Shown piece by piece: positions 21,818-55,059 of a stretch of 64,000 nucleotides of DNA. Numbering within the stretch: the first letter of the stretch is position 1; every line of letters starts with the position of its first letter. Location: the NCBI GenBank assembly GCA_050953525.1, contig JBMNMW010000004.1:1539-65538 (forward strand), in the 5' to 3' direction. The notes under the pieces are model-generated. The model had not been told where the DNA came from, did no database searches, and saw nothing but the letters and a program-made list of their open reading frames with translations. This stretch comes from Candidatus Brevefilum sp. (GTDB lineage: Bacteria; Chloroflexota; Anaerolineae; Anaerolineales; Anaerolineaceae). Both the position numbers and the translations under genes were made by a program.

Positions 21818-21820
21818 TTT

Positions 21821-23098: not shown

Positions 23099-23197
23099 GA
23101 AAAATAACCTTTGATTAGTAAAGAGATTGGTTAATTTCCATCATCTTTTACTTTCGATGGGTGCAAAAAACTCAAAACCGAATCGCCTCCAATATGG

Positions 23198-24475: not shown

Positions 24476-25893
24476 CAGAATTCAGCGTACATAAAGGCGG
24501 TGAAACCTTTGGAGACAATAAAGGTCAGGGTGAAAATGAACAATGCGATATAAGCAACATCTAATATGACCAGTGAAATCCCCCCCTTTTTCTTTGCTTT
24601 TTCCGCAAGGTTGTGCATCAGGGGCAGGCTGAACAATACTGCTGGGATGATGAAAGGTATGTAAAAAAGGATATTGAGGGATCTAAAAGTGACAGAATTG
24701 CTCCAGCCATTCATGCCAAACAAAGCGCCTAAGAAGGGTCCCCAGGAGCGGATGTCGGTAATCCTGAAGAACACCCAACCGATGATGATTAATACCAAAG
24801 AATAGATATGCTGGATGATCGGGTTGATTTTCTTTAACTTTTTCCCAAAGCCGGAGGCTTCAATTGCAAGGATAAAGCCATAATATGCCCCCCAAATCAC
24901 ATAGTTCCAGCTAGTGCCATGCCAGAGTCCCGTTAAAAGGAAAACGATCAGGAGGTTGGATTGCTGCCGAAGAAACCTCTCTTTCTTTCGAGCAAATTCA
25001 AGAGGAATGAACAGATAGGTGCGAAACCATGCCCCCAACGTGATATGCCAACGGCGCCAAAAATCCGAGATACTCCGACTGATGTAGGGAAAATTGAAAT
25101 TTTCAGGCAGATTGAACCCTAGCATTTGACCAACACCAATCGCCATATCGGTATAGCCTGAGAAATCCAAATAAAGCTGCAAGGTGTAGGCGATAATGCC
25201 AAACCAGGCTACACCGGCACCCATTTCACGATAATTTGCAGAAAAAACCTGGCTTGTCGCCAAATGCAAGCTGTCCGCTAAGATAACTTTTTTTGCCAGA
25301 CCCCCAATAAACCTTCTGGCGCCTTGCATAATATCCAGAGGGATGAATTTTCTGGTGATTAAGTCGTCCTTGACCTGGGTAAACCGGGTGATTGGACCTT
25401 GCAGTAACTTGGGAAACATGATCAGATAAGCGCTAAAATTGATCAGGTTGTTCTCAGCATCGTTGACCTGATTATAAATATCGAGAATGTAGGAGATGCC
25501 GGAAAAAGTGAAGAAAGAAATACCTAACGGGAGTGCAGGTTCCGAATAATTGATTGAGATAGAAAAAATAGCTTCGATGATATCAAAGAAAAAGCCTGTA
25601 TATTTATAAAACCCTAAAAGTAATAAATTCAGGATCACCCCGGTCCACATGAGCGATTTTGCTGATTTTTCTTCCTTTGTGCTGTAAACCTTTCCTATTT
25701 TTCGACCGATAAAGTAATTCAGAAGGATCGAAAGAAGCAATACATGGATGTGAGTAGGGTCTGACCAGGCAAAAAATGCAAAAGATAAAATGACGAGCAA
25801 GGCGTTTTGCCAGGCTCTTTTTGGAAGGACATAAAAAAGTATCAGGGTAATTGGAAGGAATAAAAATATGAAGGTGATGCTTGAAAATGGCAT
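24475..25893 (-). CDS. MBOAT O-acyltransferase, AlgI/DltB family
   Basis: LPLGISFFTF, FPKLLQGPI.R, YLDFSGYTDMA, ENFNFPY, FWRRWHITL, catalytic His in TGLWHG, C-terminal FMYAEF. Confidence 0.93.
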   Translation of the reverse strand: MPFSSITFIFLFLPITLILFYVLPKRAWQNALLVILSFAFFAWSDPTHIHVLLLSILLNYFIGRKIGKVYSTKEEKSAKSLMWTGVILNLLLLGFYKYTGFFFDIIEAIFSISINYSEPALPLGISFFTFSGISYILDIYNQVNDAENNLINFSAYLIMFPKLLQGPITRFTQVKDDLITRKFIPLDIMQGARRFIGGLAKKVILADSLHLATSQVFSANYREMGAGVAWFGIIAYTLQLYLDFSGYTDMAIGVGQMLGFNLPENFNFPYISRSISDFWRRWHITLGAWFRTYLFIPLEFARKKERFLRQQSNLLIVFLLTGLWHGTSWNYVIWGAYYGFILAIEASGFGKKLKKINPIIQHIYSLVLIIIGWVFFRITDIRSWGPFLGALFGMNGWSNSVTFRSLNILFYIPFIIPAVLFSLPLMHNLAEKAKKKGGISLVILDVAYIALFIFTLTFIVSKGFTAFMYAEF

Positions 25894-26037: not shown

Positions 26038-28044
26038 TTAATATCCCAACCAGTTCAGAGCACTTTTGACGTAATTTCTCCACACACTTGGATAGTGGGT
26101 GCCATACCAGTTGTCGACAAATTTGACGTTCGCACCCTTGGTCTGCATTGGTTTACGGATCGCGTTGGCGCCACTCTGATAAGCCAGGGGCATTGTCAAT
26201 TGTGTACCATCACGCAAAAGCACAAAGGGATAAGGAGATCCTGGCCCCGAATCTTCCTGCCTTCCGATATAAAGATAAAATTTAACATTTTTTGGAATGG
26301 TAGAGCTGGTAAAGGATCCAATGTATTTCACGAATTGATTGGTTTCCAGCCAGTAAGGTAGATATGGAGGCAAAATTCCGCCGCCTTCTGCCAGCCAAAC
26401 GGCTGGTGACATTGCCATTATCTTCGAAAAAACATCCGGTCGTTTGAGCCCTGCATAAAGCGAAAACAAAGCAACTCGACTTCCACCTCCGATGCCGGTA
26501 TGTTCTCGACCAGGCAGGGTGCGGTAGTTGGAATCAATGATAGGCTTCAGATCATCAATAATGAAGCTCAATAGTTGGTTTCCTTTTCCATTTACGACGT
26601 CGGTTGTGTTGTTGAGCCAATTATCCATATTATAGTTGGTCCAGGGCATATACTCATCGTAGGGATGAAAGGAATCAAATTCAATTGCGACTGCTATAAT
26701 TCCCTTACCAGTTGTCTCGTAAATCGTATTGAGAGTTTCATCAAATTTCCAATCAAGAAGGTCTGAAATGTTGGCACCAGCTTCTGCACCGAAAACATGC
26801 TGTGCATCAAGAAGGTAAATAACCGGATAGGATTGCGTTGTTCTAAAGTAATCCGGCGGCAAATAGACCCAAATCCGTCTTGCCCTGTTGTGGAATGGAA
26901 TTGTAATATCAAAATGATCCAAACCCTTATTAAAAAATATTGGGAAGTAAGTTTCATAATCCAAGGACCGGGTCAATAAAGGCTGTGGCAGGTTCTGCGC
27001 CCAGGCGTCAAGGTTGAAATTCCCGTTATTAATAGCCTTTTCTGGTAAACCATTTGCTAACAATGCTTCTACCAATGCTCGGATGCCCTCAAGGTAGGCT
27101 TGCGGAAATGATATCTTGTTCCCACGACTATCATTGACGACAGGTCGGACATCTACTTCCATTGTTCGTCGCGCATCATCCACCTCAATCGCAAAGGACA
27201 CACCCTCGGGCAGACTCCGCTCATTGATCAGGTTAAGCAAATGATTATTGGACAGCCAGGTGCCTCCCCTTTCGGCAAACCAGATTGTGGGTGATAGCGC
27301 ACCGACCTTTGAATAGACATCAGGCCTCATCAAGCCGGCGTAAAGAGAGAAAAGCCCCCCCATCTCATAGCCGCCAATAGTCGTGTTTTCTCGACTCTGT
27401 AAGGTCCGATAGCGTTGATCGATCTCCGGCTTGAGTGTATCCACCATAAAATCAAGGTAAGCATCGGCGTCTCCGCCTGCACTGCGATTTGCCTCATAGG
27501 GATCCACCCACAGGTACATATGATTGTTCTCCCAGGGTCCGTACTCTTCCCAATGATGAATGGGGTCAGAGAACAACCCCACGATGATGGCATTTGATGC
27601 AGCTACGTCTGTAAAGAATGGGTACAGGCTCTCGTCTAAAAACCAGGACTCTCCATCAATCCTATTTTTTATGAAGAACTCTTCTGCCCCCTGAAGGTAG
27701 AAGACAGGATAAGCCTGTTGCGAGGTGAAATAATCAGGCGGAAGTAAGATGACCACAGATTTATCTCGCCCATCAAACTGGGGCATTTGGATCGAAAATA
27801 ATTCAATCTGATTGTTTTCAATCGGGTGCAGCTCATCACGCTGTGATGTGAGCATACTCAAACTGCTGCCTGTGTCAGACTCGTTTATGTATTGAAAGAG
27901 CTGATCAAACTCGGCTGATGGGTCGGCTGGATCATCCCCCGCCTGAACCGCATTTGGAACAAGCGAAAAACACAAAACAAACAATAGCAAACCAGTAAAA
28001 ATTTTTCTGAAATATTTATTTTCTTGATGAGGTATTAAACGCAT
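26038..28044 (-). CDS. Secreted tandem alpha/beta-hydrolase (two PF00756-type esterase domains)
   Basis: Signal peptide ending AVQA. Two copies of (V/W)..LPPDY.....YPV.Y...LKP.ID..YRT...RE.T.IGG....LFSLYAGL.RPDV.SK...SP. Confidence 0.8.
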   Translation of the reverse strand: MRLIPHQENKYFRKIFTGLLLFVLCFSLVPNAVQAGDDPADPSAEFDQLFQYINESDTGSSLSMLTSQRDELHPIENNQIELFSIQMPQFDGRDKSVVILLPPDYFTSQQAYPVFYLQGAEEFFIKNRIDGESWFLDESLYPFFTDVAASNAIIVGLFSDPIHHWEEYGPWENNHMYLWVDPYEANRSAGGDADAYLDFMVDTLKPEIDQRYRTLQSRENTTIGGYEMGGLFSLYAGLMRPDVYSKVGALSPTIWFAERGGTWLSNNHLLNLINERSLPEGVSFAIEVDDARRTMEVDVRPVVNDSRGNKISFPQAYLEGIRALVEALLANGLPEKAINNGNFNLDAWAQNLPQPLLTRSLDYETYFPIFFNKGLDHFDITIPFHNRARRIWVYLPPDYFRTTQSYPVIYLLDAQHVFGAEAGANISDLLDWKFDETLNTIYETTGKGIIAVAIEFDSFHPYDEYMPWTNYNMDNWLNNTTDVVNGKGNQLLSFIIDDLKPIIDSNYRTLPGREHTGIGGGSRVALFSLYAGLKRPDVFSKIMAMSPAVWLAEGGGILPPYLPYWLETNQFVKYIGSFTSSTIPKNVKFYLYIGRQEDSGPGSPYPFVLLRDGTQLTMPLAYQSGANAIRKPMQTKGANVKFVDNWYGTHYPSVWRNYVKSALNWLGY

Positions 28045-28287: not shown

Positions 28288-30468
28288 TTATTGGTAATAA
28301 AATATTCTCCAGTGGATAAAGACTTCCGAGTACCTTGAAAGATACATCCACAAACCCCCGCTAAAATAGATTATTATCGCCAGAATGATCGTGATCCGCC
28401 GCAAAACGAAATTGCGCAGTTTAAGAAAATAATAGACCATCAGGGTGATGAGTGCACCTATGACTGGTAAATGGTACCTTCCTGAGACCGCGTAGTGACG
28501 AAAACCATATTCCAAATCCTGTTTGTAGTTGAATACAAACATGAAGCCCATAAAACCGACCAGGATGTAAATTAACAGGTTTGCAACCGGGTCTTTGAGC
28601 TTCCAGTAGCGAACCAAACACACAAACCACCAGAACAGCAAGAGACTGTGGAGCGCAGTAGCCAAAACTGGCACAAAAGTTTTGTGTGAGAAGATCCCCC
28701 AGATTGATTGAATGTTAAATGCAATCCAAAAGTCAAAGGCATAATTGATGGGATTCTGAAGGCTGTCACGCTTGAACCATAACCCCGGCAAACTGACTTG
28801 ATTGTAAAATTCGCTTCTGTAGGAAAAGGATGGACAATTTCCAATCCCCTTTATTTGATTGCATGTGGGGGTTGGCCTTGAATAGCGGATGAGATTGACC
28901 CCGTATAGCCCTATAAAAAGCGACAATGCGATGACAAACACGATCGAGAGCAGGATATTGGTCCGATTAAAGTCGAGTTTGATCTTCCGGAAATTTGTTA
29001 AACTAAAAAATAGCCAGGCTAAAAATATGATCAGGGTCATCAACAGGAATTGTTCTTTCGCAAGAGAGCCCACGATGACCCAAAAGCCAGTCAGAGTGGA
29101 ATGACGGACGAAATCCTCTTTTTTATAGAGGGAGACCAGATGGTAGATTGTTGCTGCACCTGCCAGGTTCATCAAGTTGTCGTAGCTGATTCCACCGCTG
29201 ATGAACACAAAAGTTATGATATTGGAGAGGAGAAACGCAGCCAAAACTCCGGCATAGGGGTTGTTTGTCGCTTTTTTTGCCAGCTTGTACATATATATGA
29301 TGGTGAAAGACGAAATAAAGACGGAGGTAAAACGCCACAGGTGATCTGACCGCATTGGGCTGGATGGAAATGCAAATCTGAATATCTTGTGAACTGCACC
29401 GTAGATCCAATATGCCAGGTAGGGCTGGTCTGTGACGACATAAGACGTGCCCGATTGCTCTTCAGGTATGCCCCAGGTCTCGCTATATCTGTATGCATAA
29501 TGCCTGTGAGGAGCCTGATCGGGTTGCCCGGAGGTGTACACCATAAACAGGCTAAAGGTGATAAAGTACAGGATCGTTAAGGTTAATAAGATAATGTATA
29601 AGGGCGGCTTTGTAATTTGAATTTGTTTAAAAAACGGCAACTGAATTTTTTTGTGCAGATTCCTTTTAGGGGAGTAGGTGAAGAGGAGTTCGGTGAACCC
29701 GAATAAGAAAAGGGCGAGAAAGGCTGCAGAAAAAGCAACACTCAATACCTTAAGTCCCAAAAACCATGTTTGATCCCAGGGTGAGGTGATCCTGACGCCA
29801 GCATCAAAACCATCGGTAATATTGATTTCATTGCCAATTTGATCTTCTGCAGCCTGGTCAAATTGGATAACTGATGGAACGCCATTGACCGTTACGCCAA
29901 GCCTGCCATCGGGCACAGGCTCCCGGATAAAGATCGTCATGCCTGGAACATTCCAGTAACGCATCACCCGTCTGTAAAACGATAGGATTGTTCCGCTTTT
30001 ACATTCGCCCGAATTGATCACAATAGGATAGTGGTCTTGTTCAAACCCTTCAGGAGAAAATAAATGATTTGTCATCGAATGACTCAGCTGGGGGACGACA
30101 AGTGGGGTTTCTCCGTCATCAGCGTCGAAACAGATCTCAACTTGATGGGTTGTGGGAACAGACCAAAAGTAATTGGAGCTGACAGTGATGGCCACGACTA
30201 AAAAAGCACTTAAAAGAAGAACAAAAACAAGATTCCGGGTCTTTTTAAGCTTTTTCCAAAAGGGAAGGATAATTGATTTCAGCGCAAATAAGGCCAAAAT
30301 GAAAAGAACAACACATGAAATGGAAAAAGCAAGGAGCTTTGCTTCCCGATCTTGTTGATAGAAGGATGGGAAATTTAATAAAGCAACCGCAGACAGCCCC
30401 ATGGCAAACAATAAGGATGCTAAAGCCGATAGAAAATTATTTAAAAACTTGGATTTGTTGGTGCTCAT
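28288..30468 (-). CDS. GT-C (PMT_2/DUF2142-like) membrane glycosyltransferase, type A, fused to an N-terminal extracytoplasmic domain
   Basis: SGQPDQAPH after a TM helix, GGISYDNL, SLAKEQ, SGRYHLP. The N-terminal ~260 aa is homologous to ORF 33607..34452. Confidence 0.7.
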   Translation of the reverse strand: MSTNKSKFLNNFLSALASLLFAMGLSAVALLNFPSFYQQDREAKLLAFSISCVVLFILALFALKSIILPFWKKLKKTRNLVFVLLLSAFLVVAITVSSNYFWSVPTTHQVEICFDADDGETPLVVPQLSHSMTNHLFSPEGFEQDHYPIVINSGECKSGTILSFYRRVMRYWNVPGMTIFIREPVPDGRLGVTVNGVPSVIQFDQAAEDQIGNEINITDGFDAGVRITSPWDQTWFLGLKVLSVAFSAAFLALFLFGFTELLFTYSPKRNLHKKIQLPFFKQIQITKPPLYIILLTLTILYFITFSLFMVYTSGQPDQAPHRHYAYRYSETWGIPEEQSGTSYVVTDQPYLAYWIYGAVHKIFRFAFPSSPMRSDHLWRFTSVFISSFTIIYMYKLAKKATNNPYAGVLAAFLLSNIITFVFISGGISYDNLMNLAGAATIYHLVSLYKKEDFVRHSTLTGFWVIVGSLAKEQFLLMTLIIFLAWLFFSLTNFRKIKLDFNRTNILLSIVFVIALSLFIGLYGVNLIRYSRPTPTCNQIKGIGNCPSFSYRSEFYNQVSLPGLWFKRDSLQNPINYAFDFWIAFNIQSIWGIFSHKTFVPVLATALHSLLLFWWFVCLVRYWKLKDPVANLLIYILVGFMGFMFVFNYKQDLEYGFRHYAVSGRYHLPVIGALITLMVYYFLKLRNFVLRRITIILAIIIYFSGGLWMYLSRYSEVFIHWRIFYYQ

Positions 30469-30672: not shown

Positions 30673-32070
30673 TCAATAAAACCAGTCAATCAGAAATGAG
30701 TTGTATTCGCGCAAAATTGTGATCGGACCACCATATAAAAATAACCCGATAGTGAATGCCAGGGTTGCCCAGCGTAGACTTCGAAAGGGGACATGCTCGA
30801 GGACTTTCGTAAACAAAATGTAGATCGCTCCAATCACCGGAAAAATATAACGCCCTTGCAGCATAATTTGTTTGAACCCATAGATTAACTCAGTGTTGTA
30901 GTTTTGAATAAACAGAACAACAGAATAAAAAATGGTGATCCACACTAGGGTCAGCGTGATATGCGAAAGCCTTTGATAATACATCAGGTTGAAAATGCTC
31001 AACAGAGCCATCCAGTAAAACAATAATCGTAAAAAGAGAATGATATCGCGAGGAAAATAGGCTTCATGGCTGATCATGCCAAAGGTCCGCATGAGCATAT
31101 GTTCTACCCAATCGACTGATAAATATCGCAGGAGAGATGGATAACCTTCGGCGACACTTTCTTTGATGGTCAATTTTTTCTCTAAACCCACTTCACGCAG
31201 ACGTCGTTCAAAACCACTCAATTCACACTGAGATTCTAACAATATTTCTTCACAGGGAGGTAAGATCGATTTGAATCGAAGGATGTTAATCCCGTAAATT
31301 GCGAAGTTGCCGATGATCAGCACAGCTAAAAACAGGATCAGAAGGGCTGTTTTTAGCCCTTTCAATGGGGCAGGGAATATGATTTTTCTATTTCTGACCA
31401 TGTAAGCAATCCAGGCAATACCCATCGCCAGAGCTAAGGGCAGCAATGTGTACTTTGTCAATGTGCCGATCGCGACAAATATCATCCATTTCAAACTGTC
31501 TTTAACAAATTGATCACCTTTGAGCGATTTTACTAAATAAAACAGGCTGATCATGCTGAGCATATTTGCCAGATTATCATAATTAACGCCCCCGGCAAGA
31601 AAAACAAACATCAAGGTGTGGGTTAGAAGGAAGACAGGCAAGAGCTGCCACCATTTATGCTGGATGACCTGTTTTGAGAGCAAAAAACAAAAGACGACCG
31701 TTGTGAATGCATACAGGACATTAACAACCCGCAATGTGATTAAAAGCTGGAGATCGGTTATGTTCGGTTTGATCCACTCCAGCAGGTTGATGATTCGAGC
31801 ATTGATCCAGTAGTAAAGAAATGGATTTTGTTTGATATACCAGCCCCAGACGTAAGTTTCTGCGGTGTCTGGTGGGATGCCTGCTGTCGTCGAGAAATGT
31901 TTTGAAAAAATAAAATGCGCCGATTCATCCGGAATGATCCCCGTCAGGGTCGACCGTAATCTCAAAGCAATGAAAAGGGATGAGACGATAAAAATGAGTA
32001 AAACTGCCGCGAGGACGATCTTTGTGTCATACGCCCGCCACAGATTTTGAAATGGACTTGTGTTTTTCAT
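30673..32070 (-). CDS. GT-C (PMT_2/DUF2142-like) membrane glycosyltransferase, type B
   Basis: GIIPDESAH, GGVNYDNLAN, TLTKYT, QGRYIFP; many hydrophobic segments. Confidence 0.72.
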   Translation of the reverse strand: MKNTSPFQNLWRAYDTKIVLAAVLLIFIVSSLFIALRLRSTLTGIIPDESAHFIFSKHFSTTAGIPPDTAETYVWGWYIKQNPFLYYWINARIINLLEWIKPNITDLQLLITLRVVNVLYAFTTVVFCFLLSKQVIQHKWWQLLPVFLLTHTLMFVFLAGGVNYDNLANMLSMISLFYLVKSLKGDQFVKDSLKWMIFVAIGTLTKYTLLPLALAMGIAWIAYMVRNRKIIFPAPLKGLKTALLILFLAVLIIGNFAIYGINILRFKSILPPCEEILLESQCELSGFERRLREVGLEKKLTIKESVAEGYPSLLRYLSVDWVEHMLMRTFGMISHEAYFPRDIILFLRLLFYWMALLSIFNLMYYQRLSHITLTLVWITIFYSVVLFIQNYNTELIYGFKQIMLQGRYIFPVIGAIYILFTKVLEHVPFRSLRWATLAFTIGLFLYGGPITILREYNSFLIDWFY

Positions 32071-32270: not shown

Positions 32271-33617
32271 TTAATTAAAGTATAAACGCCAGTGTGAAAA
32301 AACATTAGCATACCTTGAGATAAACATTCCCAGCCCACCCATGAAATAGATTAAGATGGCAATTGCGACCGTGAACCGCTTTGCCAGGGCTGACCGAATC
32401 TTCATAAAAGCATAAGACATGAAAACAGCAAGAATGCTGAGAATGGGGGATAGATATCGACCTGTGACAACGTAATGTTGAAAATTAAATTCAACTTCGT
32501 TCTTGTAATTCCAAAAGAAAACGAACCCCACATAACTGATCAAAATCATTAACAGGAGTGTTGCTATCCTGTCGCGAGGTTTCCAATGAAGGAAGAAATT
32601 AAAAATTGCCCAAATCAATAAGGTGAGGTGCAAGCTAATGGAAAGTGTTGGGACAAACGTCTGATGTGACAAAATTCCCCAGACCGACTCAGCCATTTTG
32701 TAGATCCAAAATTTCATTGCATATTTTATGGGGTCAGTGAGATGGTCGCGCACAAACCACATCCATTGGAGGTTGAAAGGTTGGTAGTGTTCGTATCGGT
32801 AATCATACGTTCTGCATGATGCGATCGCTTTAATCTGCGAGCAAGAAGCTGTTATTCGACCATAACGTACCAGGTTGACGCCATAGAGCCCAAGAAAGAG
32901 TCCTAAAAAGACAACAAAAAGAACACTCAAAACGACATTTGCCTTGCAGAATTTAAATGAAAGTGATTTGAAGTTGCGGAGGGTAAAGAATAACCAAGCA
33001 AGAAATATGATGAGTGTTAACAGTAGAAATTGATCTTTTGCAAGCGAACCAATGATCACCCAGAAGCCAACAAGTGCAGTATGACGAACATAATCATCTT
33101 TTTTATAGACCATGACAAGGTGATAAATACTGGCAATGGCTGCCAGGTTCATTAAATTGTCATAACTGATGCCTCCGCTTACAAAGACAAACATCAGGGT
33201 GTTTGAGAGGAAAAACGCAGCAAGGATTCCATAATAAGGATTGCCAGTAACCTTTTTTCCCAGTTGATAGGTGAAAAATACGGTTAATGTTGCATAGAAA
33301 AGAGATATCAGCCGCCATAATAAACCCGGTACGATATTGACGGACGGCAGAAGAAAACGGAGGATCTTATAAACTGCGCCATTGATCCAGTAATACAGGT
33401 AGGGTTGTCCCTTGATCAAATACTGGATATTGGGGTCGTCTTCAGGAATACGCCAGGTTTCGGAAAATTTGCGAGAAAAATAAGCGTGCGGTCCCTGATC
33501 GGGCTGACCGGATGTGTGAACCATCAGCAGTCCAAAAGCAATAAAATAGAGCAGCGTGAACGCTAATAGGACTTTGTAGCCCGTTAATTGAGACAGGTGC
33601 GACTCTTTAATTTTCAT
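32271..33617 (-). CDS. GT-C membrane glycosyltransferase, type A (stand-alone)
   Basis: SGQPDQGPH, GGISYDNLMN, SLAKDQ, TGRYLSP. Probable ATG at 33617 overlaps the upstream stop (ATGAAAATTAA). Confidence 0.7.
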   Translation of the reverse strand: MKIKESHLSQLTGYKVLLAFTLLYFIAFGLLMVHTSGQPDQGPHAYFSRKFSETWRIPEDDPNIQYLIKGQPYLYYWINGAVYKILRFLLPSVNIVPGLLWRLISLFYATLTVFFTYQLGKKVTGNPYYGILAAFFLSNTLMFVFVSGGISYDNLMNLAAIASIYHLVMVYKKDDYVRHTALVGFWVIIGSLAKDQFLLLTLIIFLAWLFFTLRNFKSLSFKFCKANVVLSVLFVVFLGLFLGLYGVNLVRYGRITASCSQIKAIASCRTYDYRYEHYQPFNLQWMWFVRDHLTDPIKYAMKFWIYKMAESVWGILSHQTFVPTLSISLHLTLLIWAIFNFFLHWKPRDRIATLLLMILISYVGFVFFWNYKNEVEFNFQHYVVTGRYLSPILSILAVFMSYAFMKIRSALAKRFTVAIAILIYFMGGLGMFISRYANVFSHWRLYFN

Positions 33618-34452
33618 TTCCGGCTCTTTCATGCGAATGGGGGTTGTTTTCAACAGGAAATGTAAAGAAGGTTTCAGTTAACCCAAAAAGGAACAGGGAA
33701 ATAAAGAGCGCGCTGATCAGAACAATCAGAAGTTTTAAACCCTGAAACCAGCGCTGACCCCAGGGCATGCCCACCCTTTTGCCCTGATCAAAGCCGTCCT
33801 TCACTACAATTGGGTCCGGCGTTTGCTCATCTGATTCGCGATCAAAAACAACCACTGCAGGAGCTTCATTAATTGAAATAAAGAACCTGCCATCGGGCGG
33901 GTTGTTTTGAACCGTGACATCCACCTGATTGCCGATCAGCGCAAGGGTGAGGCGCGAGAGAAGGTTGGTCAATTCGCCCTCAATACATTCACCCGACCCA
34001 ATGCTTATTGGATAGCGATCGAAACCAAAACTGTTCGGTGAATACAACCTGTTCGTGTTTGGGTCAACCAGTTTTTCTATTGCCAGGCTGCCACGCTCAT
34101 TGGAAGCATCAAAACAAAGTTTGACCTGGTGTAGCTGCGGCACCCCCCAGTAATTGGCTGAAGATAGGGTCAGCACACCGGTCAGGAGGAGAAATAGCAT
34201 GATCATAAATATCAGGCTGGATTTTCTTGTTACTTGTTTGATATGGGGCAGGATAAAAAAGATGGATGCCAACATAATCAGGGCACAATAGAAGACCCCA
34301 AGAATAATGATGCTGATGATTTTCTTTCCGGCTGTTTGTTCGTAAAAACCAACCAATCTGAAAAGTGTGAGCGCGCTCAGACTGGCGGCTATCATTCCTG
34401 CAACCAGGGTGATAAGTATGATATTTCGCGTTTTATCCTTAATTTTCACCAA
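33607..34452 (-). CDS. Membrane protein of unknown function (3 N-terminal TM, extracytoplasmic domain, C-terminal TM); partner of type-A GT-C
   Basis: Homologous to the N-terminus of 28288..30468 (HQV.(I/L)CFDA, SGEC, PDGR, I...DGFD.G, PW.Q.WF.GLK). TTG start with GGAG RBS. Confidence 0.8.
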   Translation of the reverse strand: MVKIKDKTRNIILITLVAGMIAASLSALTLFRLVGFYEQTAGKKIISIIILGVFYCALIMLASIFFILPHIKQVTRKSSLIFMIMLFLLLTGVLTLSSANYWGVPQLHQVKLCFDASNERGSLAIEKLVDPNTNRLYSPNSFGFDRYPISIGSGECIEGELTNLLSRLTLALIGNQVDVTVQNNPPDGRFFISINEAPAVVVFDRESDEQTPDPIVVKDGFDQGKRVGMPWGQRWFQGLKLLIVLISALFISLFLFGLTETFFTFPVENNPHSHERAGNEN

Positions 34453-36396: not shown

Positions 36397-37797
36397 TTAA
36401 TAAAACCACGTTTGAAAAATCTCCTGATATTTCATAATGAGGATGATCGGCCCTCCGTAAAAAAGCAAACCGATCAAGGCGACCAGCGTCAGGTATTTGA
36501 CAGGTTTGAAGGGGGTGTTTTTAATGACCAGTGTCAACAATACGAAATTTGCTCCGATCACAGGGAAAAAATACCTTCCCTGGAGAGCAACCTGCTTAAA
36601 ACCATAAACAAGTTCAGATTCGTAGTTTTCAAGAAAAAGGACAAGACTGTAAAAAGCAGCAATCGCGAGCAGGTAAATAACAGGCGCGGACACAGATCGT
36701 TGGAAAAGGAGGTTCAGAACACCTAAAAAGAACAACCCGTAGAACAGGATCTGATAAAAACTGATCAACTGGAAAGGAAAATAAGCCTGATGTCCGCTGA
36801 TCCCAAAGGTTCGAAGTAGCGTGTGATAGCCCCAATCGACGAGAATGTAACGCAAAGGCGTGGGATAACCCTGGGCGATGCTCTCTCGGACGGTAAGTTT
36901 TTCGTCGAGCGCCAGCTTCCAGTGTCTCTCTTCGAATTTACTGATCTCACATTGTGATGCAAGTAATATTTGTCTGCATTTTGGTTTGATAGATTGGTAA
37001 CGGATCAGGTTGACGCCATAAAGTGCAAAATTTCCAACCAACAACAGGGATAGAACGATGATGAGGACGACCGCTTTCGCATTATTGAGGTGGATTGGAA
37101 AAAGATCTTTTCGATGAAGCGCAAGGTAGACGATCCAGCAAATCGCCATGATCAGGGCTAAGGGAAGCAGGGTGTATTTCACAAGGGTACCAAGCGCGAT
37201 GAGGATCATCCAGCCAAGGCTATTGAATAAAAAATTCTTCCCCTGGACCACGTTGATGAAGCAGTAAATCCCAGCCATGCTCAACAGATTAGCGAGGCTG
37301 TCATAATGAACGCCTGGCGCCATAAAGACGAACATGAGCGTGTTGGTCAATATAAAAACGGGTAAGAGCTGCCACCATTGGTGTTGAATGACCGCCTTGG
37401 ATAACAAAAAACAAAAATAAACCGTTCCAATGGCGTACAGGAGGCTGACAAAGCGTAATAAAACCAATAGATTGTGATCTGTTAAATTTGGGGCAATCAG
37501 GTTGAATAAATTGATAATTCTGCCTGTAACCCAGTAATAGAGGAAGGGATGTTGTTCAATATACCATCCCCAGGCAATGGTTTCGTCTGTGTCGGGGGGG
37601 ATCCCTGGAGTTGTGGAAAAATGTTTGGCAAACACAAAATGGGCGGGTTCGTCCGGGATGATGCCCGGCTTCAGGTTGATTGCGAGAAAGGCGCTGTAAC
37701 CAACAAAGACAAGGATTAGCACCAGCAACACCAGGTTTGCACCATTTGTTTGCCAAAATGATTTCGTTTTTTGATTATTTGCGAGGTTTGATATCAT
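36397..37797 (-). CDS. GT-C membrane glycosyltransferase, type B
   Basis: GIIPDEPAH, GVHYDSLAN, TLVKYT, QGRYFFP; clear paralog of 30673..32070. Confidence 0.72.
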   Translation of the reverse strand: MISNLANNQKTKSFWQTNGANLVLLVLILVFVGYSAFLAINLKPGIIPDEPAHFVFAKHFSTTPGIPPDTDETIAWGWYIEQHPFLYYWVTGRIINLFNLIAPNLTDHNLLVLLRFVSLLYAIGTVYFCFLLSKAVIQHQWWQLLPVFILTNTLMFVFMAPGVHYDSLANLLSMAGIYCFINVVQGKNFLFNSLGWMILIALGTLVKYTLLPLALIMAICWIVYLALHRKDLFPIHLNNAKAVVLIIVLSLLLVGNFALYGVNLIRYQSIKPKCRQILLASQCEISKFEERHWKLALDEKLTVRESIAQGYPTPLRYILVDWGYHTLLRTFGISGHQAYFPFQLISFYQILFYGLFFLGVLNLLFQRSVSAPVIYLLAIAAFYSLVLFLENYESELVYGFKQVALQGRYFFPVIGANFVLLTLVIKNTPFKPVKYLTLVALIGLLFYGGPIILIMKYQEIFQTWFY

Positions 37798-47627: not shown

Positions 47628-48398
47628 TTATTTGCCTATGAGGGCTGTCTTATAAACGTCACAAACGCTGTTGGCATCGCTCAGCAATTTGATTTCCCCG
47701 CGATCCAACCACATGGCCCGGCTGCAAATTGATCTGATCTGTTCGACGGAATGTGTCACCATAATCACCGTTGCGCCGCCATCCCTGAAGTTTGCCATGC
47801 GGTTGATGCATTTTTGTTGAAAGGCAACGTCGCCAACCGAGAGAACCTCGTCCAAAATAAGAATATCTGGCTTCCAGGCCGTTGCGACGGCAAAACCCAG
47901 TCGGGATTGCATGCCTGATGAATAGGTTCGCAAAGGGGCTTCGATGAACTTGCCGACTTCTGAAAAATCAATAATTTCCTCAACCTTGTTTTCGATTTCA
48001 TCATGGGAATGACCCAGCAAAGTCGCATTTAAAAAGATATTTTCGCGGCCGGTCAATTCTGGGTGAAAGCCTGCGCCAAGCTGAAGCATTGGGCTGATCT
48101 GCCCTTTAACCCACACCCGACCCTCCGAAGGGACCAGAACCCGGGAGATGACCTTTAGCAGGGTAGATTTTCCAGCGCCATTGCGTCCCAATACTCCAAA
48201 AATTTCACCTTTTTTAATTTCGAGGTTAATATTTTTAAGCGCTGAAAACAACGCATGTTTTATCTGACCCTTGATTAATTTTATGACATATTCTTTAAAT
48301 GTTCCAATGTTTTCATTAGGCAAACGATAATGAACAGATACATCTCTCAAAAAGACAGAATTATTGGTTTGGGGTTCATCAACGATCAAATTAGACAT
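47628..48398 (-). CDS. wzt: Polysaccharide ABC transporter ATPase without C-terminal carbohydrate-binding module
   Basis: GRNGAGKST, GAGFHPELTGREN, YSSGM..RLGF, LILDEVLSVGD..FQQKC. About 256 aa, ending right after the NBD. Confidence 0.9.
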   Translation of the reverse strand: MSNLIVDEPQTNNSVFLRDVSVHYRLPNENIGTFKEYVIKLIKGQIKHALFSALKNINLEIKKGEIFGVLGRNGAGKSTLLKVISRVLVPSEGRVWVKGQISPMLQLGAGFHPELTGRENIFLNATLLGHSHDEIENKVEEIIDFSEVGKFIEAPLRTYSSGMQSRLGFAVATAWKPDILILDEVLSVGDVAFQQKCINRMANFRDGGATVIMVTHSVEQIRSICSRAMWLDRGEIKLLSDANSVCDVYKTALIGK

Positions 48399-49206
48399 GA
48401 TATGCAAATTTATCTGCTCGAATACAGAAAAAGATCCAGCCAATGATCAAAATACCAAAGGAGGATACTCCAGTTGCAATCCATGTTTGCAGGTGGGGCA
48501 CAAAACCATCCAGCATGAGGATGCGGAAAAAATTGACAATGTAATAGAAGGGATTGATGTATAAAAGCAACCCGTTTAATATTTTTTTATAAAAATCGAG
48601 CGGCATGATAATCGGCGTGAGATACATCCAGGCTGTCAGGACAACAGGATATAAATCTGCAACATCAGGAAAAAAAACAGCCAGGGATGATACCAGCAGT
48701 CCTATCCCCAAAGAAAATGCAAATAAGAAAAGCATTGACACAGGAAAAAGCAATGCAGATGTTTTTAAGGTAACTCCCGTAATTATGTAAACAATTGCGA
48801 GCGGGACCAGGGAAATGACAAAATTGACCATGCTTGCCATGATGGTTGATACCACGAAGGCAGTGCGGGGAACATAAATTTGCTTAAATAAGGCGCTGCC
48901 CCACACCATTGAGCTCATCGCCATCGTTGTGGATTGCGAAAACATTGTCCAGCAAATCACACCCGTAAGAACGTAAGCTGCATAATTGTCTGCGCGGTCA
49001 AAAACCTGTGAAAACACAATCACCATGATCAGCATCGTTCCCAGGGGATTGAGCATCGTCCAGGCGACGCCGAGAAAAGAACGTTTATATCTTGCAACGA
49101 TGTCGCGACGCACCAATTGATAAATCAGATCGCGATATTTCCATAAAGCAATTAACTCTTCAATTGCAGGATGTTTTCTTTTTGCGCTGTCGTAAATGTC
49201 GGTCAT
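48391..49206 (-). CDS. wzm: Polysaccharide ABC transporter permease
   Basis: LVRRDIVARYKRSFLGVAW..LNPL, WMYLTPI, NP...I...FR; six TM segments. Confidence 0.92.
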   Translation of the reverse strand: MTDIYDSAKRKHPAIEELIALWKYRDLIYQLVRRDIVARYKRSFLGVAWTMLNPLGTMLIMVIVFSQVFDRADNYAAYVLTGVICWTMFSQSTTMAMSSMVWGSALFKQIYVPRTAFVVSTIMASMVNFVISLVPLAIVYIITGVTLKTSALLFPVSMLFLFAFSLGIGLLVSSLAVFFPDVADLYPVVLTAWMYLTPIIMPLDFYKKILNGLLLYINPFYYIVNFFRILMLDGFVPHLQTWIATGVSSFGILIIGWIFFCIRADKFAYHV

Positions 49207-49301
49207 AAATGAAAAATAAGGGCATGATTGAATGCCCAAAGGTTACCTTAAAAGGTGTGCGCTGTCAATGAACGCGATGTGATGCGATCTTGCAAAAAAT
49301 G

Positions 49302-50114
49302 TTAAGTATCCTGAATGGTCATTCTGATCACATATCGATAGTAAGTATATCTCCCCGCATCTAAGGATTCAGGCCCCCAACCGCAAAACCCAAGATAGAT
49401 GAAATTTTCAAAAGAAGGCTTCATGGTCCCCACCCATTCCGAGCGATCACCTTTTCTTTCAATGAGAATATTTTCGATTTCTTCCGGCTCCAACCATAAC
49501 TTTTCCGATGCCTGGTGAGACAACCGAGCAATGCTGTTGATCTTTGTGGTGAGCAAATATTCGCCGTTACATAGCCATTCAATCTCAGATCCGATTAATT
49601 GATCGATTTGTTGCTGGATGTAATCATTGTCTTTTTTCCCCCAATGCTCCAGGTATTTGCGAATAAATTCTGCCTCCATGGGTTTAAGTATGTTGCCGTT
49701 TAAAAATGAAGAATGAAGGATCAAATAGGGCGTTTTCTCGTAAAAGACCGCTGTTCCTTTGCCTAACGCAAATTTATCGCCTTTATCTTCAAAATAGTCC
49801 CTGTCAAGGACAGTAAACTTACTTATCTGATTTTTCAAAGGACCCGACGTGAAGGTAATGATCGTCTCACAACCATATAAACTTGCCAAATTATCGGGAG
49901 TTGGAATAGTCGTTGATTGTGGGAAAAAAGGTTCGGGCGCTTCAGTTGTGATTGTTTTTTCCGGAAGAGATAACACCGATTGTTCATCAAAGCTTGATGT
50001 CGGTGCGAATGGGCGTTGCAACGCTTCTCCAACAGAAACATTGGGAGTCTTTGATGAACAGCTGACCAGGATGATCAAGAACAGCTGAGTGATGAAGCTC
50101 AAGCGCTTTTTCAT
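49302..50114 (-). CDS. Divergent sortase-like lipoprotein (class F-like)
   Basis: Lipobox LVSC. His in AVFY...LILHS, Cys in IYLGFCG and Arg in YYRYVI occur in sortase order and spacing. Pattern match by eye only. Confidence 0.6.
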   Translation of the reverse strand: MKKRLSFITQLFLIILVSCSSKTPNVSVGEALQRPFAPTSSFDEQSVLSLPEKTITTEAPEPFFPQSTTIPTPDNLASLYGCETIITFTSGPLKNQISKFTVLDRDYFEDKGDKFALGKGTAVFYEKTPYLILHSSFLNGNILKPMEAEFIRKYLEHWGKKDNDYIQQQIDQLIGSEIEWLCNGEYLLTTKINSIARLSHQASEKLWLEPEEIENILIERKGDRSEWVGTMKPSFENFIYLGFCGWGPESLDAGRYTYYRYVIRMTIQDT

Positions 50115-50129
50115 AATTGAGAAAGAAGT

Positions 50130-50163
50130 CAGCATTCAGATACCCATGGGTATCTGAATGCTG
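50130..50163. repeat. Perfect 34-bp palindrome between the surface-protein gene and the sortase-like gene
   Basis: CAGCATTCAGATACCCA|TGGGTATCTGAATGCTG, read directly. Confidence 0.95.
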
Positions 50164-50184
50164 TTGGTGACCTAAATCTGAGGA

Positions 50185-51054
50185 TTAGTTATTCAATGTT
50201 TCCCTTTTCTTCATTTTCAAAAAGCCGGCGGCGATCGATCCAAGGCCAAGAATTCCGAAAACGAAGGGCGCTACACTACGAGTAAACGACGGACCACTTC
50301 CACCTGCTGGTTGATCTGGTGCCGGGTCAACAACCACTTTGGGTTCTTCTTCTGGAACAACAACAGCAACTGTTGTGGGTGGCTTGGTGGGCTGCTCAAG
50401 CGGACATGGTATGACAGTTTCAGCGACAACAAAAGATTCTTCGTTGTAGGAATAATCAATTGAGACGAGATTCCCTTCGCGGGCAGTTGTGAAGCTTGCC
50501 GATCCGTTTGCCGGGGCAATCCCGGTGCCGGTTTCACTATTATTTGCACTCCAGGCGAACGCAACTGCAAACGGATTATCATTAATGACCTCCCAAGAAA
50601 TGCTCATTGCTTCGGTTTCTGTCGTTGGGATGCCAGAACAGATTCCTGATAGAACAAGCGGTATGAATTCATCATCCGGGGTTGTTTCAGTGGGGGTTAT
50701 AGATGGTGCTGCAGTTGGTGTGAAAGAAGGAATATCGGTAGGCGTGTTTGTGGGCTTCGATGTGGGTGTATTCGTTGGAACTGATGTTGGTGTATTCGAC
50801 GGTAGGGACGTTGGCGTATTGGTGGGCGCGGTTGTTGGGGTGTAAGTGTATGTGGGATAAGCTGTTGGCGTTTTGGGGGAATGTTTGGTTTTTGTGGGCG
50901 TTGCCGTAGGATTGATCTTGGTTTTAGTTGGTTTCTTGCCTTCAAGTCCACTGGCAGCAACATTTCCATCAATTAAAGACGGAGTTGACAGAAGTATGGC
51001 TAAAATTAGGAAAATTCCTCCCAAAACAAAAAGGATTTTTGAGTTTTTATTCAT
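50185..51054 (-). CDS. Thr/Pro-rich (mucin-like) surface protein with signal peptide and C-terminal sorting signal QPAGG + TM + KMKKR
   Basis: Hydrophobic N-terminus, seven xTPTxxP[T/S] repeats, a Cys-flanked ~85-aa domain, then QPAGG, a hydrophobic helix and a basic tail. Confidence 0.8.
   Translation of the reverse strand: MNKNSKILFVLGGIFLILAILLSTPSLIDGNVAASGLEGKKPTKTKINPTATPTKTKHSPKTPTAYPTYTYTPTTAPTNTPTSLPSNTPTSVPTNTPTSKPTNTPTDIPSFTPTAAPSITPTETTPDDEFIPLVLSGICSGIPTTETEAMSISWEVINDNPFAVAFAWSANNSETGTGIAPANGSASFTTAREGNLVSIDYSYNEESFVVAETVIPCPLEQPTKPPTTVAVVVPEEEPKVVVDPAPDQPAGGSGPSFTRSVAPFVFGILGLGSIAAGFLKMKKRETLNN
50677..50844 (-). repeat. Seven degenerate 24-nt (8-aa) tandem repeats xTPTxxP[T/S]
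   Basis: YTPTTAPT NTPTSLPS NTPTSVPT NTPTSKPT NTPTDIPS FTPTAAPS ITPTETTP. Confidence 0.9.
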
Positions 51055-51201: not shown

Positions 51202-51230
51202 ATTATACATAATATCCAAATACATGTCAA
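51202..51230 (-). promoter_or_regulatory. Perfect-consensus sigma70 promoter for the TP-rich surface protein
   Basis: Minus-strand TTGACA-17 bp-TATAAT, about 140 nt upstream of a GGAG RBS and ATG. Confidence 0.8.
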
Positions 51231-54015: not shown

Positions 54016-55059
54016 TTGATTGAAGTAATGACAACCGTTAAAGAAGTACCAAACGATGCCATTTCAGATGAGAACCTCGAATCATTATTTGAAGAACATG
54101 ATGCGTTGGAAGAAGAAATGGTATATGAAGAATATATCTCTGACCACACCGGGATCACCTCGGATGATTCAGTAAGCCTGTACTTAAACGAGATGAGCAG
54201 AGTCCCACTGCTCACACGCGAAGAAGAGATTACACTGGCCAAAAAAATGGAAATCGGGCATCAGGCTCGTCTGACCCTGCTTGAATCTGATGGCGACCTT
54301 GTTAACCTGGAAGAGATTAAAGAATTGATCAGAGAAGGGAAAGAAGCACGTGAATATTTGATCAAAGCAAATATTCGTCTGGTGGTCAGTATTGCCAAAA
54401 AATACCGTCGTTATGGATCTTCGTTCCTGGATCTGATACAGGCAGGAAATGTGGGTTTGATCCGTGCGGTTGATAAATTTGATTATAAACGTGGAAACCG
54501 TTTCAGCACCTACGCGACATGGTGGATTCGGCGTTCAGTTTTGCGCTTTTTGAACCAGAAAGAACGCACCATTCGTTTGCCAAATTACCTCAGCAACCGC
54601 TTGCGCAAGGTTCGCACGGTTACCCGCGATCTTGCCCAGGAATTGGGGCGTCAGCCTACGCTGGAAGAAATTTCTGAACATGTGGATCAGGATCCAGAAG
54701 AGCTGCGACAATTGATCCATTACGCTCGGCTTCCAATTTCTTTGGATGAGCCTGTGGGCGAAGACGGTGAGAGCGAGCTGTTGAATTTTGTTGAAAACGA
54801 GAATGCTGTTGTCCCATTCAATTCGGTACAGCAACGTTTGCTTGAAGAGGATATTGAAAATGCCCTATCCGAACTGTCTGAACGAGAAGCAAGCATCATC
54901 AAGCTTCGGTTCGGACTTGATGGCAATCGCAGCCATACCCTCAAAGAACTGGGAGAAATCTTTGGCGTAACCCGTGAGCGGATTCGCCAGATTCAACAAA
55001 AGGCATTACGAAAACTGCGAAGCCCGCAGAATCAAGTTCGTTTACGCAACTATCTTTAG
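54016..55059 (+). CDS. RpoD/RpoS-family sigma70 factor lacking region 1.1 (probable alternative sigma)
   Basis: Region 1.2 DSVSLYLNEM..VPLLTREEE, region 2 ANIRLVVSIAKKY...FSTYATWWIR, region 4 TLKELG..FGVTRERIRQI. Confidence 0.9.
   Translation: MIEVMTTVKEVPNDAISDENLESLFEEHDALEEEMVYEEYISDHTGITSDDSVSLYLNEMSRVPLLTREEEITLAKKMEIGHQARLTLLESDGDLVNLEEIKELIREGKEAREYLIKANIRLVVSIAKKYRRYGSSFLDLIQAGNVGLIRAVDKFDYKRGNRFSTYATWWIRRSVLRFLNQKERTIRLPNYLSNRLRKVRTVTRDLAQELGRQPTLEEISEHVDQDPEELRQLIHYARLPISLDEPVGEDGESELLNFVENENAVVPFNSVQQRLLEEDIENALSELSEREASIIKLRFGLDGNRSHTLKELGEIFGVTRERIRQIQQKALRKLRSPQNQVRLRNYL

Follow-up and report, generated by a model that had tools for sequence, protein, structure and literature searches.

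A putative sortase-fold lipoprotein family encoded beside proteins with a new C-terminal sorting signal in Anaerolineae and candidate phyla radiation bacteria

Surface proteins of prokaryotes are fixed in place by sortases and other C-terminal sorting systems, and each new pair of signal and enzyme has made a set of surface proteins predictable. The closest described systems to the one considered here are the class B sortases (Staphylococcus aureus SrtB, Streptococcus pyogenes Spy0129 and Streptococcus pneumoniae type II pilus SrtB; MEROPS C60B), which carry an N-terminal membrane tether and are encoded beside dedicated substrates with a tripartite signal of non-LPXTG type, NP(Q/K)TN. Sortases of classes E and F, found in Actinobacteria and Chloroflexota, recognise LAxTG and LPXTG variants. 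The glycosylphosphatidylinositol (GPI) transamidase (PIG-K/Gpi8) is a transamidase of the His...Cys type and forms a thioacyl intermediate on a signal made of small residues, a short spacer and a hydrophobic tail, and the L,D-transpeptidases (YkuD) are extracytoplasmic His...Cys wall enzymes, often lipoproteins or otherwise membrane-anchored, that pass through an acyl-enzyme intermediate. In this work we focused on two neighbouring genes in a 64,000-nucleotide stretch of DNA from Candidatus Brevefilum sp. (the window; positions 1,539 to 65,538 of contig JBMNMW010000004.1, assembly GCA_050953525.1), one encoding a lipoprotein and the other a Pro/Thr-rich surface protein. We read them as a dedicated sortase-fold cysteine transpeptidase and its own substrate, which bears a new sorting signal and would be anchored to the wall, and we give this reading a probability of about 0.6. 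That the two proteins stand in an enzyme/substrate processing relationship of some kind is very probable. No description of this enzyme family or of its tag was found in the literature on sortases of Anaerolineae, Chloroflexi and the candidate phyla radiation (CPR) or on sortase-like enzymes.

The two genes and the parts of their products on which the argument rests are the following.

50185..51054, (-): substrate gene, 289 amino acids (open reading frame (ORF) list, homologue alignment and AlphaFold2 model)
50287..50319, (-): signature motif P246-D-Q-P-A-G-G-S-G-P-S256, invariant in homologues, coordinates checked
50299-50313, (-): QPAGG within the signature motif
50218..50274, (-): hydrophobic transmembrane segment V261-L279, parted from the GG by the spacer SGPSFTRS
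50203..50217, (-): basic tail K280-M-K-K-R284 (KMKKR)
49302..50135, (-): gene of the predicted sortase-fold lipoprotein, longest ORF 277 amino acids (ORF, homologues, AlphaFold2 and Foldseek)
50058-50060, (-): Cys26 of the enzyme lipobox LVSC26, with a Pro/Thr-rich linker after it
49302-49895, (-): putative catalytic domain of the enzyme, residues 81-277
49713..49715, (-): invariant His141 (YLILHS), after the strand taken as beta4
49383..49385, (-): invariant Cys251 (YLGFCGWGP), proposed nucleophile, last residue of the strand taken as beta7
49335..49337, (-): Arg267 (YYRYVI), first residue of the last strand, beta8
49647..49670, (-): invariant and family-specific E156, R159 and E163 (PMEAEFIRKYLE), in the helix after the His

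The structure of the lipoprotein was predicted with AlphaFold2 from a 109-sequence alignment (mean predicted local distance difference test, pLDDT, 83.7; predicted template modelling score 0.72), and the core, residues 81-277, was mostly above pLDDT 90. When this model was compared with the PDB using Foldseek, the top 22 matches were all sortases, of classes A, B, E and F, with a best E-value of 1.3e-5 and a probability up to 1.00. The best match was the class B enzyme Spy0129 of S. pyogenes (E=1.3e-5); the others included Actinomyces oris SrtA, S. pneumoniae pilus SrtB, S. aureus SrtB and SrtA, Thermobifida fusca SrtE, Listeria monocytogenes SrtB, Corynebacterium diphtheriae SrtF and Streptococcus agalactiae SrtA. 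Template modelling scores normalised by target were 0.35-0.55 for these 22 matches, and from rank 23 onward E-values exceeded 0.3 and probabilities were below 0.05. An initial annotation, made from the letters of the window, had proposed a sortase-like fold, and at the level of a predicted model this is supported, all significant PDB matches being sortases.

In the model a helix is followed by strands b1 (90-95) and b2 (104-109), a short helix, b3 (128-132), b4 (137-140) and His141. Then come extra strands, helices at 156-163 and 170-180, b5 (184-189), b6 (192-204) and two helices (207-226), and finally b7 (245-251), which ends in Cys251, and b8 (267-276), which starts with Arg267. Class B sortases have the same order of elements, with a helix between b6 and b7, and carry TILYGH130, TLSTC223 and KR233IVV in the same three places (the S. 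aureus SrtB sequence used is identical to the PDB chains, as was checked). The order and secondary-structure positions of His, Cys and Arg therefore fit sortases, as judged from residue positions in the model and not from distances in three dimensions. Of the putative catalytic residues named by the initial annotation, His and Cys are invariant at the expected elements and Arg is nearly so.

The likeness to class B thus comprises the order of strands and helices, the helical insert between beta6 and beta7, a His after beta4, a Cys ending beta7 and an Arg starting beta8, the membrane tether at the N-terminus and the position beside a dedicated substrate whose tripartite signal is not LPXTG. Unlike class B, the new enzyme shows no detectable sequence similarity to these sortases and has YLGFCGWGP in place of TLxTC, 110 residues from His to Cys instead of 93, and 16 from Cys to Arg instead of 10. 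It also has an extra two-helix segment with the invariant E156, R159 and E163, for which we know of no counterpart in sortases, most members are tethered by a lipid and not by a signal anchor, its signal is PD-x-[PA]-AGG-x-GPS rather than NP(Q/K)TN, and its hosts are Anaerolineae and CPR bacteria. Classes E and F gave weaker matches (T. fusca SrtE and C. diphtheriae SrtF); their hosts are likewise monoderms outside the Firmicutes, but these enzymes are detected by Pfam PF04203 and by NCBIfam sortase models, whereas the new family is not, and its signal is also different.

Homologues of the enzyme were searched in several ways. A word-indexed search yielded 119, all called 'hypothetical' and none with a Pfam domain, the named ones being from Anaerolineaceae or Brevefilum. 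Just 39 were obtained when 1.84 billion cluster representatives were searched exhaustively with HMMER; the family is narrow. A profile from diverse members retrieved 165 proteins (approximately 165 clusters at 90% identity), again all hypothetical and without a Pfam domain, and a profile search of 5.8 billion proteins revealed no member that carries a Pfam domain and so bridges the family to a known one. Candidate division WWE3 and the 'ACD' groundwater bacteria of the CPR make up a second clade, at 24-34% identity. H141, C251, R267, E156, R159, E163, G252 and W253 are invariant in 109 aligned enzymes, and across both clades (23 diverse members) H141, S142, E156, R159, E163, C251, G252 and Y268 remain so; R267 is present in 21/23, while R262 varies. 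Even at 24-30% identity H141 and C251 do not change, and the putative active-site string (Y/L)(L/I)(G/N/S)FCGWGP occurs in all members. A lipobox precedes the conserved domain in 73/109 proteins and a tetratricopeptide repeat (TPR) region with a transmembrane helix in 11/109 (the long forms), the remainder having a signal anchor or being truncated at the N-terminus; the domain is thus always extracytoplasmic and tethered to the membrane. In the window protein, the lipobox and the strings AVFY, LILHS, IYLGFCGW and YYRYVI, on which the sortase proposal had been built, are all present in the translation of 49302-50135.

The claim that the enzyme was unannotated also held, no Pfam or NCBIfam model covering the window protein or the 23 diverse members. 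Because it matches neither PF04203 nor the NCBIfam sortase classes, and has neither TLxTC nor a motif of LPXTG type, the family is not a member of classes A-F. The model points to a sortase-fold enzyme family in new sequence space outside these classes. We class it as a new sequence family of the predicted sortase fold whose C-terminal signal is new as well, but whose mechanism would not be new in category.

Other identities were considered and rejected. L,D-transpeptidases, which resemble the proposed enzyme in location, catalytic residues and intermediate, have SxGC(I/V)R in place of FCGWGP; YkuD was absent from the Foldseek matches and PF03734 did not match. Neither caspase-like nor papain-like folds were among the structural matches of the enzyme. 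The GlyGly-CTERM/rhombosortase system likewise has Gly-Gly in a C-terminal tripartite signal, and cleavage adjacent to GG has been demonstrated for it (doi 10.1101/2023.06.07.544157). In that system the motif lies directly against the helix and is cut within the membrane by a rhomboid serine protease, whereas here a spacer of 8-15 residues and an extracytoplasmic Cys/His domain are found; this identity was rejected on account of the spacer and because TIGR03501 was not among the NCBIfam matches at E<=10.

The substrate is laid out as a signal peptide, a Pro/Thr-rich stalk (residues 41-125), a beta-sandwich between Cys139 and Cys217, and the sorting signal, its C-terminus reading ...DPAPDQPAGGSGPSFTRSVAPFVFGILGLGSIAAGFLKMKKRETLNN. 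Pro and Thr make up 58% of the stalk. Of the nine TPT in it, seven recur exactly every 8 residues (positions 72-120). Both Cys are invariant in 11 aligned homologues, which, one close copy excepted, share 37-49% overall identity and differ widely in their Pro/Thr linkers. The signal peptide, the seven TPT, the Cys-flanked domain, the QPAGG, the helix and KMKKR all agree, in coordinates and translation, with what had been read from the sequence at first. The substrate reaches the curated cutoff of no Pfam or NCBIfam family, and Pfam gave just sub-threshold immunoglobulin (Ig)-like hints on 10 other tagged substrates. In most orthologues we observed an extra N-terminal Cys-containing domain (GQETCPxTGxWxKVDGLSG...YTAPEG...ETCYKA...STVGHDLSHASFRLV; alignment columns 40-120), in the place of which the window substrate (50935-50960) and its closest relatives have a short Lys/Thr/Pro stretch.

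The folded part of the substrate (residues 134-213) is predicted as a 7-strand beta-sandwich with pLDDT >90, and its structural matches were generic Ig-like or ApaG-like beta-sandwiches only, with no pilin or CnaB signal in the structure comparison. These data bear on whether the enzyme might be a pilus-type polymerase, which would link substrate molecules head to tail or attach them to a different subunit, in the way of class C and certain class B sortases. An Ig-like head, one enzyme gene per substrate gene as in pilus islands, and the pilus-associated Spy0129 and S. pneumoniae type II pilus SrtB among the best structural matches would all suit such a polymerase. The folded domain of the substrate family, however, has no invariant Lys, there is one tagged gene per enzyme with no tip or base pilins alongside, and some substrates are barely more than a Pro/Thr-rich stalk, such as one of 146 amino acids at locus L024, so that we consider a polymerase very improbable.

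The C-terminal signal is tripartite in the sense known from sortase substrates, with a motif and spacer, a hydrophobic helix and a basic tail. In the 11 homologues D243, P246, D247, P249, A250, G251, G252, S253, G254 and P255 are invariant and always followed by helix and basic tail. As these proteins are otherwise just 37-49% identical, the conservation of the tag is far above chance; the same applies to H141, C251 and R267, invariant in 109 enzymes. Among 17 substrates from different loci the consensus is PD-x-[PA]-AGG-x-GPS, with about five further residues and a Pro before the helix and basic tail. In the CPR clade the tag reads PTP(T/I)E-x-x-L-G-G(G/E), or EEPLPGG at one locus, followed by the spacer, helix and basic tail, and the core common to both phyla is [DE]-x-x-[A/L/P]-G-G. 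No LPXTG-type pentapeptide (LPXTG, NPQTN, LAXTG etc.) serves as the motif in Anaerolineae, CPR or long-form tags. The LPXTG anchor model TIGR01167 scored 9.3 bits against the substrate, below its cutoff of 15.9, so the helix and tail are weakly alike to LPXTG anchors.

The initial annotation had taken QPAGG as the sorting signal and xPxGG as the motif of a new sortase class. A non-LPXTG tripartite signal containing QPAGG is indeed present, but the conserved tag is longer, PD-x-[PA]-A-G-G-x-G-P-S, and xPxGG is too narrow, the Pro being Ala in several paralogues and the core shared between phyla being the broader one given above.

From the GG to the helix there are 8-15 residues, some of them charged, in both Anaerolineae and CPR tags. 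Motifs cut by membrane-embedded enzymes (PEP-CTERM, PGF-CTERM and GlyGly-CTERM) abut the helix, and LPXTG signals have a spacer (Haft 2023, doi 10.1101/2023.06.07.544157). The spacer therefore fits an enzyme with its active site outside the membrane and argues against GlyGly-CTERM/rhombosortase processing.

Pairing of enzyme and tag was studied by scanning one genome per species, which gave 20 loci from Anaerolineae metagenome-assembled genomes (MAGs) with 25 enzyme genes. A regular expression for the tag matched 17/1807 six-frame ORFs. Sixteen of the 17 matches lay 35-41 residues from the C-terminus and were followed by a helix and basic residues, and each was within approximately 320 nucleotides of a gene encoding FCGWG. 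A tagged gene was found beside 17/21 short-form enzyme genes, the window counted, mostly directly upstream on the same strand and, in L012, L014 and L016, directly downstream. The tagged Anaerolineae proteins (17 substrates) range from 244 to 744 amino acids and carry different passengers, so that the tag is their common feature. Several pairs may occur in one genome: MAG ERP113451_co2_176 has three (L015, L018 and L020), each with its own tag variant. In the WWE3 clade the tagged gene was directly upstream in 6/6 loci.

The search was also run in the reverse direction, with a DNA pattern for PDQPAGGxGP on metagenome contigs. Only in-frame, C-terminal matches were used, which made 5/119 true tags, 113/119 being chance matches. 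FCGWG was encoded approximately 935 nucleotides downstream in 3/3 true tags with enough flanking DNA. A dedicated substrate had been proposed from the window alone, and the recurrence of the adjacency in two phyla and in the reverse search corroborates it.

The lipoprotein might nevertheless not be the processor of the tag. Another enzyme encoded elsewhere, rhombosortase- or exosortase-like, would then cut it, the Cys/His protein would have some other envelope role, on wall or glycan, and its likeness to sortases would be convergent or an artefact. The family has no sequence-level homology to sortases, the GG of the tag recalls GlyGly-CTERM and a few enzyme genes have no tagged neighbour, all of which would agree with this. 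On the other hand, the spacer of 8-15 residues, some of which are charged, is unlike intramembrane-cut signals, TIGR03501 did not match even at E<=10, and sortases alone match the fold, with no YkuD, caspase-like or papain-like structure. Moreover, the tag variant changes with the enzyme clade (Anaerolineae short forms, long forms and CPR), and the close adjacency is kept between two phyla while the remaining neighbourhood changes. We regard the absence of any direct relationship as quite improbable. In those of the window ORFs that were scanned, a set short of all ORFs, no rhomboid gene turned up.

Further proteins were noted at these loci. Near long TPR-form enzymes, large surface proteins (L009 14284-19791, L020 12319-13320 and L009 20088-20510) end in TPDKPSGGG or, at a locus end, TPNIPSGGG, with a tail of approximately 27 residues after it, amphipathic or hydrophobic, with no basic cluster. 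This ending may represent a third version of the signal that behaves differently in the membrane. Giant proteins of 1442-1963 amino acids with C-termini of the type ...FWKGG...ITNNP...DKWS... (L009 4990-9840, L010 12843-18734 and L012 13380-17708) adjoin enzyme genes without a tagged neighbour. At L024 (GCA_936418455.1) the public gene call, 5489-5929 (+), is antisense to the real substrate, 5467-5853 (-), an uncalled Pro/Thr-rich protein of 146 amino acids ending in ...TPTESRLGGG, helix and RLKR. Low-complexity substrates of this system are probably often mis-annotated.

Expression of the pair was examined through the following elements.

51202..51230, (-): promoter-like TTGACA-17-TATAAT (12/12), upstream of the substrate gene
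50130..50163, (-): perfect intergenic hairpin of 15 bp with loop CATG and then a T-rich run, between the substrate and enzyme genes

A GGAG Shine-Dalgarno sequence lies 8 nucleotides before the substrate ATG at 51054. The hairpin is probably a terminator or attenuator. A hairpin with a stem of 12-17 bp was found in the same place in 14/14 other loci, CPR included (L001-L008, L011, L013, L015, L018, L021 and L024), that is, in 15/15 with the window; as the hairpin sequences are unrelated between loci, it is the structure and not the sequence that is conserved. The longest enzyme ORF begins MLTSFSIMKKRLSFITQLFLIILVSC, and its first ATG (50135) is inside the 3' arm of the hairpin, so that the start is probably the ATG at 50114 (MKKRLSF..., 270 amino acids), as in homologues. 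Five metatranscriptome runs contained 100%-identical contigs on the substrate gene only, from approximately 51160, just downstream of the promoter-like site, to approximately 50202, ending upstream of the hairpin. One transcriptome run held a contig of the enzyme gene, of 245 nucleotides (49749-49991). This pattern fits an abundant substrate mRNA, ended or attenuated at the hairpin, and a scarce read-through message for the enzyme.

Several results weigh against the assignment of a sortase-fold transpeptidase with its own substrate. At the level of sequence, the window enzyme gave no Pfam or NCBIfam sortase match at E<=10, the 23 diverse members gave no Pfam or NCBIfam match at all at E<=1, profiles of the family found nothing among the PDB sequences, and hhalign of the family profile with S. 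aureus SrtA and SrtB gave no match; a comparison with sortase structures, as first suggested, thus succeeded by Foldseek and failed by profile alignment. The TLxTC signature is absent from the family, and the structural similarity is moderate, with a root-mean-square deviation of 6-7 Å on a predicted model. The third catalytic residue is uncertain because Arg267 is replaced by Ser or Gln in 2/23 diverse members, whereas Arg159 is invariant. No tagged ORF adjoins the first enzyme copy of L009, both copies of L010 or the gene of L017, which lies at a contig end. Finally, the RNA evidence is based on contigs and demonstrates presence, not absence.

We infer catalysis and, as its course, a cut in or beside A-G-G, transpeptidation over hydrolysis, transfer to an acceptor and glycosylation of the substrate, as follows. 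The substrate would be exported by Sec and retained in the membrane through the helix and basic tail at its C-terminus, showing PD-Q-P-A-G-G-S-G-P-S approximately 10 residues outside the membrane. The enzyme would be on the outer face of the membrane, attached by its lipid or, in relatives, by a signal anchor or a TPR domain and transmembrane helix. Judging from the model, Cys251, helped by His141 and Arg267, may attack the peptide bond in or next to A-G-G, which would free the helix and tail and form a thioacyl intermediate. An amine nucleophile of the envelope would then resolve the intermediate, the likeliest acceptor being a peptidoglycan precursor or stem peptide, and the beta-sandwich head on its probably glycosylated Pro/Thr-rich stalk would become covalently fixed to the wall. 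The intergenic hairpin would keep the structural protein abundant and the enzyme scarce. The peptide DPAPDQPAGGSGPSF is a candidate tag for cleavage by the enzyme, and VVDPAPDQPAGGSGPSFTRS a candidate tag as docking partner of the catalytic domain (81-277).

The enzyme could also be an endopeptidase only, a sheddase or maturase of sortase fold whose cut would free the protein to stay non-covalently in the envelope or to be secreted. Fold, dyad and pairing support this equally, sortases hydrolyse their substrates when a nucleophile is lacking, and the substrate has no recognisable wall-binding module and, in the family alignment, no conserved Lys. To our knowledge, however, all enzymes of the sortase fold that have been characterised are transpeptidases; a tether spanning the wall is a sensible role for a Pro/Thr-rich stalk beside the tag, and a helix and basic tail that retain the protein in the membrane would be an odd design if made just for cutting it off. 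Mere proteolysis is in our view unlikely.

The genes that follow the pair bear on the nature of the acceptor.

48391-49239, (-): wzm, glycan ABC exporter gene, given as context and not as a demonstrated part of the system
47628-48443, (-): wzt, glycan ABC exporter gene, likewise context
after wzt (wzm-wzt span 47628..49239), (-): rmlC, rmlB, rmlA and rmlD, context

The position of the pair directly ahead of wzm-wzt-rml agrees with the gene order first described for the window. In 8 related loci the order is sigA, a radical-SAM gene and apgM, then divergently substrate, enzyme, wzm, wzt, rmlC and rmlB. From approximately 2 to 49 kb the window is a single large envelope-glycan island headed by the pair, with many glycosyltransferases, a DegT aminotransferase, a UDP-GlcNAc 2-epimerase, a UDP-sugar dehydrogenase, a Wzx-type flippase and methyltransferases. 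The paralogous pairs L005, L007, L012, L013, L016 and L018 and all CPR pairs have no adjoining wzm, wzt or rml, and the glycan exporter is therefore not an obligate partner. No mur genes were found in the 64-kb window, which is only part of the genome. The glycan context together with the Pro/Thr-rich stalks suggests that the substrates are O-glycosylated.

With this context, the same enzyme and substrate might use an acceptor other than peptidoglycan, namely a glycolipid or the rhamnose-containing glycan of the wzm-wzt-rml cluster, lipid-linked or exported, in a manner like GPI anchoring or like the attachment of a phosphoethanolamine lipid after cleavage by rhombosortase or archaeosortase. 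Such an acceptor, which we deem improbable, would account for the conserved order from substrate to rmlB in the 8 loci and the window and for the place of the pair at the head of an island of approximately 50 kb; the invariant E156, R159 and E163 could bind it, and the tag resembles a GPI omega-site in outline, with the small residues A-G-G-S-G, a spacer and a hydrophobic tail. The pairs without wzm, wzt or rml nearby speak against it, as does the fact that we know of no sortase that uses a glycan or lipid acceptor in vivo, and the synteny may merely mean that the stalk is glycosylated. In its strongest form, and as a doubtful analogy, the sortase-fold enzyme would be a bacterial counterpart of the GPI transamidase, joining a glycoprotein to an amine-bearing glycolipid or to a rhamnose-containing polymer exported by Wzm/Wzt. 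The GPI transamidase itself differs in having a caspase-like (clan CD) fold, several subunits and a signal without a basic tail, and the enzyme model had no clan CD match.

Other features of the neighbourhood may be recorded here. Genes for a PMT-family protein O-mannosyltransferase and for ManC (GDP-mannose) flank the WWE3 pair (L021-L023, 345-1931 and 7275-8354; L026, 3940-4932), which hints that the Thr/Pro-rich CPR substrates are O-mannosylated. Within the island of the window, four ORFs of 460-726 amino acids with 8-12 predicted transmembrane segments and no Pfam match (28288-30468, 30673-32070, 32271-33653 and 36397-37797, (-)), three of them alike in size and in the pattern of their helices, are candidates for unrecognised polymerases, ligases or GT-C-type transferases and may be what glycosylates the stalk. 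At 20207-25893 (-) the genes for an AMP-binding (adenylating) enzyme, for two proteins of 425 amino acids (one N-terminal helix, no Pfam match) and for an MBOAT acyltransferase are consecutive, and a tandem esterase-domain protein comes after them at 26038-28044; together they are reminiscent of a module that O-acylates a wall polymer or is Dlt-like. A gene for the principal sigma factor is found within a few kb of the pair in both phyla, sigA in the window (54016-55059) and rpoD-dnaG in L021, L024, L027 and L028. The CPR pair adjoins rpoD-dnaG, and the Anaerolineae pair is separated from sigA by apgM and the radical-SAM gene; this proximity may be a coincidence.

The enzyme family is invisible to Pfam and NCBIfam, and its substrates are missed as well, one having been called on the wrong strand in a public genome. 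Its hosts are Anaerolineae, abundant in anaerobic digesters, and WWE3 of the CPR, the envelopes of both being almost unknown. If the enzyme is active, the sortase superfamily would extend well past its known sequence space, and a candidate ligase with a new recognition motif, orthogonal to LPXTG, could become available for protein engineering. Should the resemblance to GPI transamidase prove real, the enzyme would be the first of the sortase fold to use a non-peptide acceptor in vivo, and monoderm Chloroflexota and the CPR would have a new route of envelope building. The pair raises the testable question of which acceptor anchors surface proteins in Anaerolineae and WWE3 and, if the reading of a dedicated transpeptidase and its substrate is true, it would provide a rule by which anchored surface glycoproteins of these lineages could be found: [DE]-x-x-[ALP]-G-G, a spacer, a helix and a basic tail.

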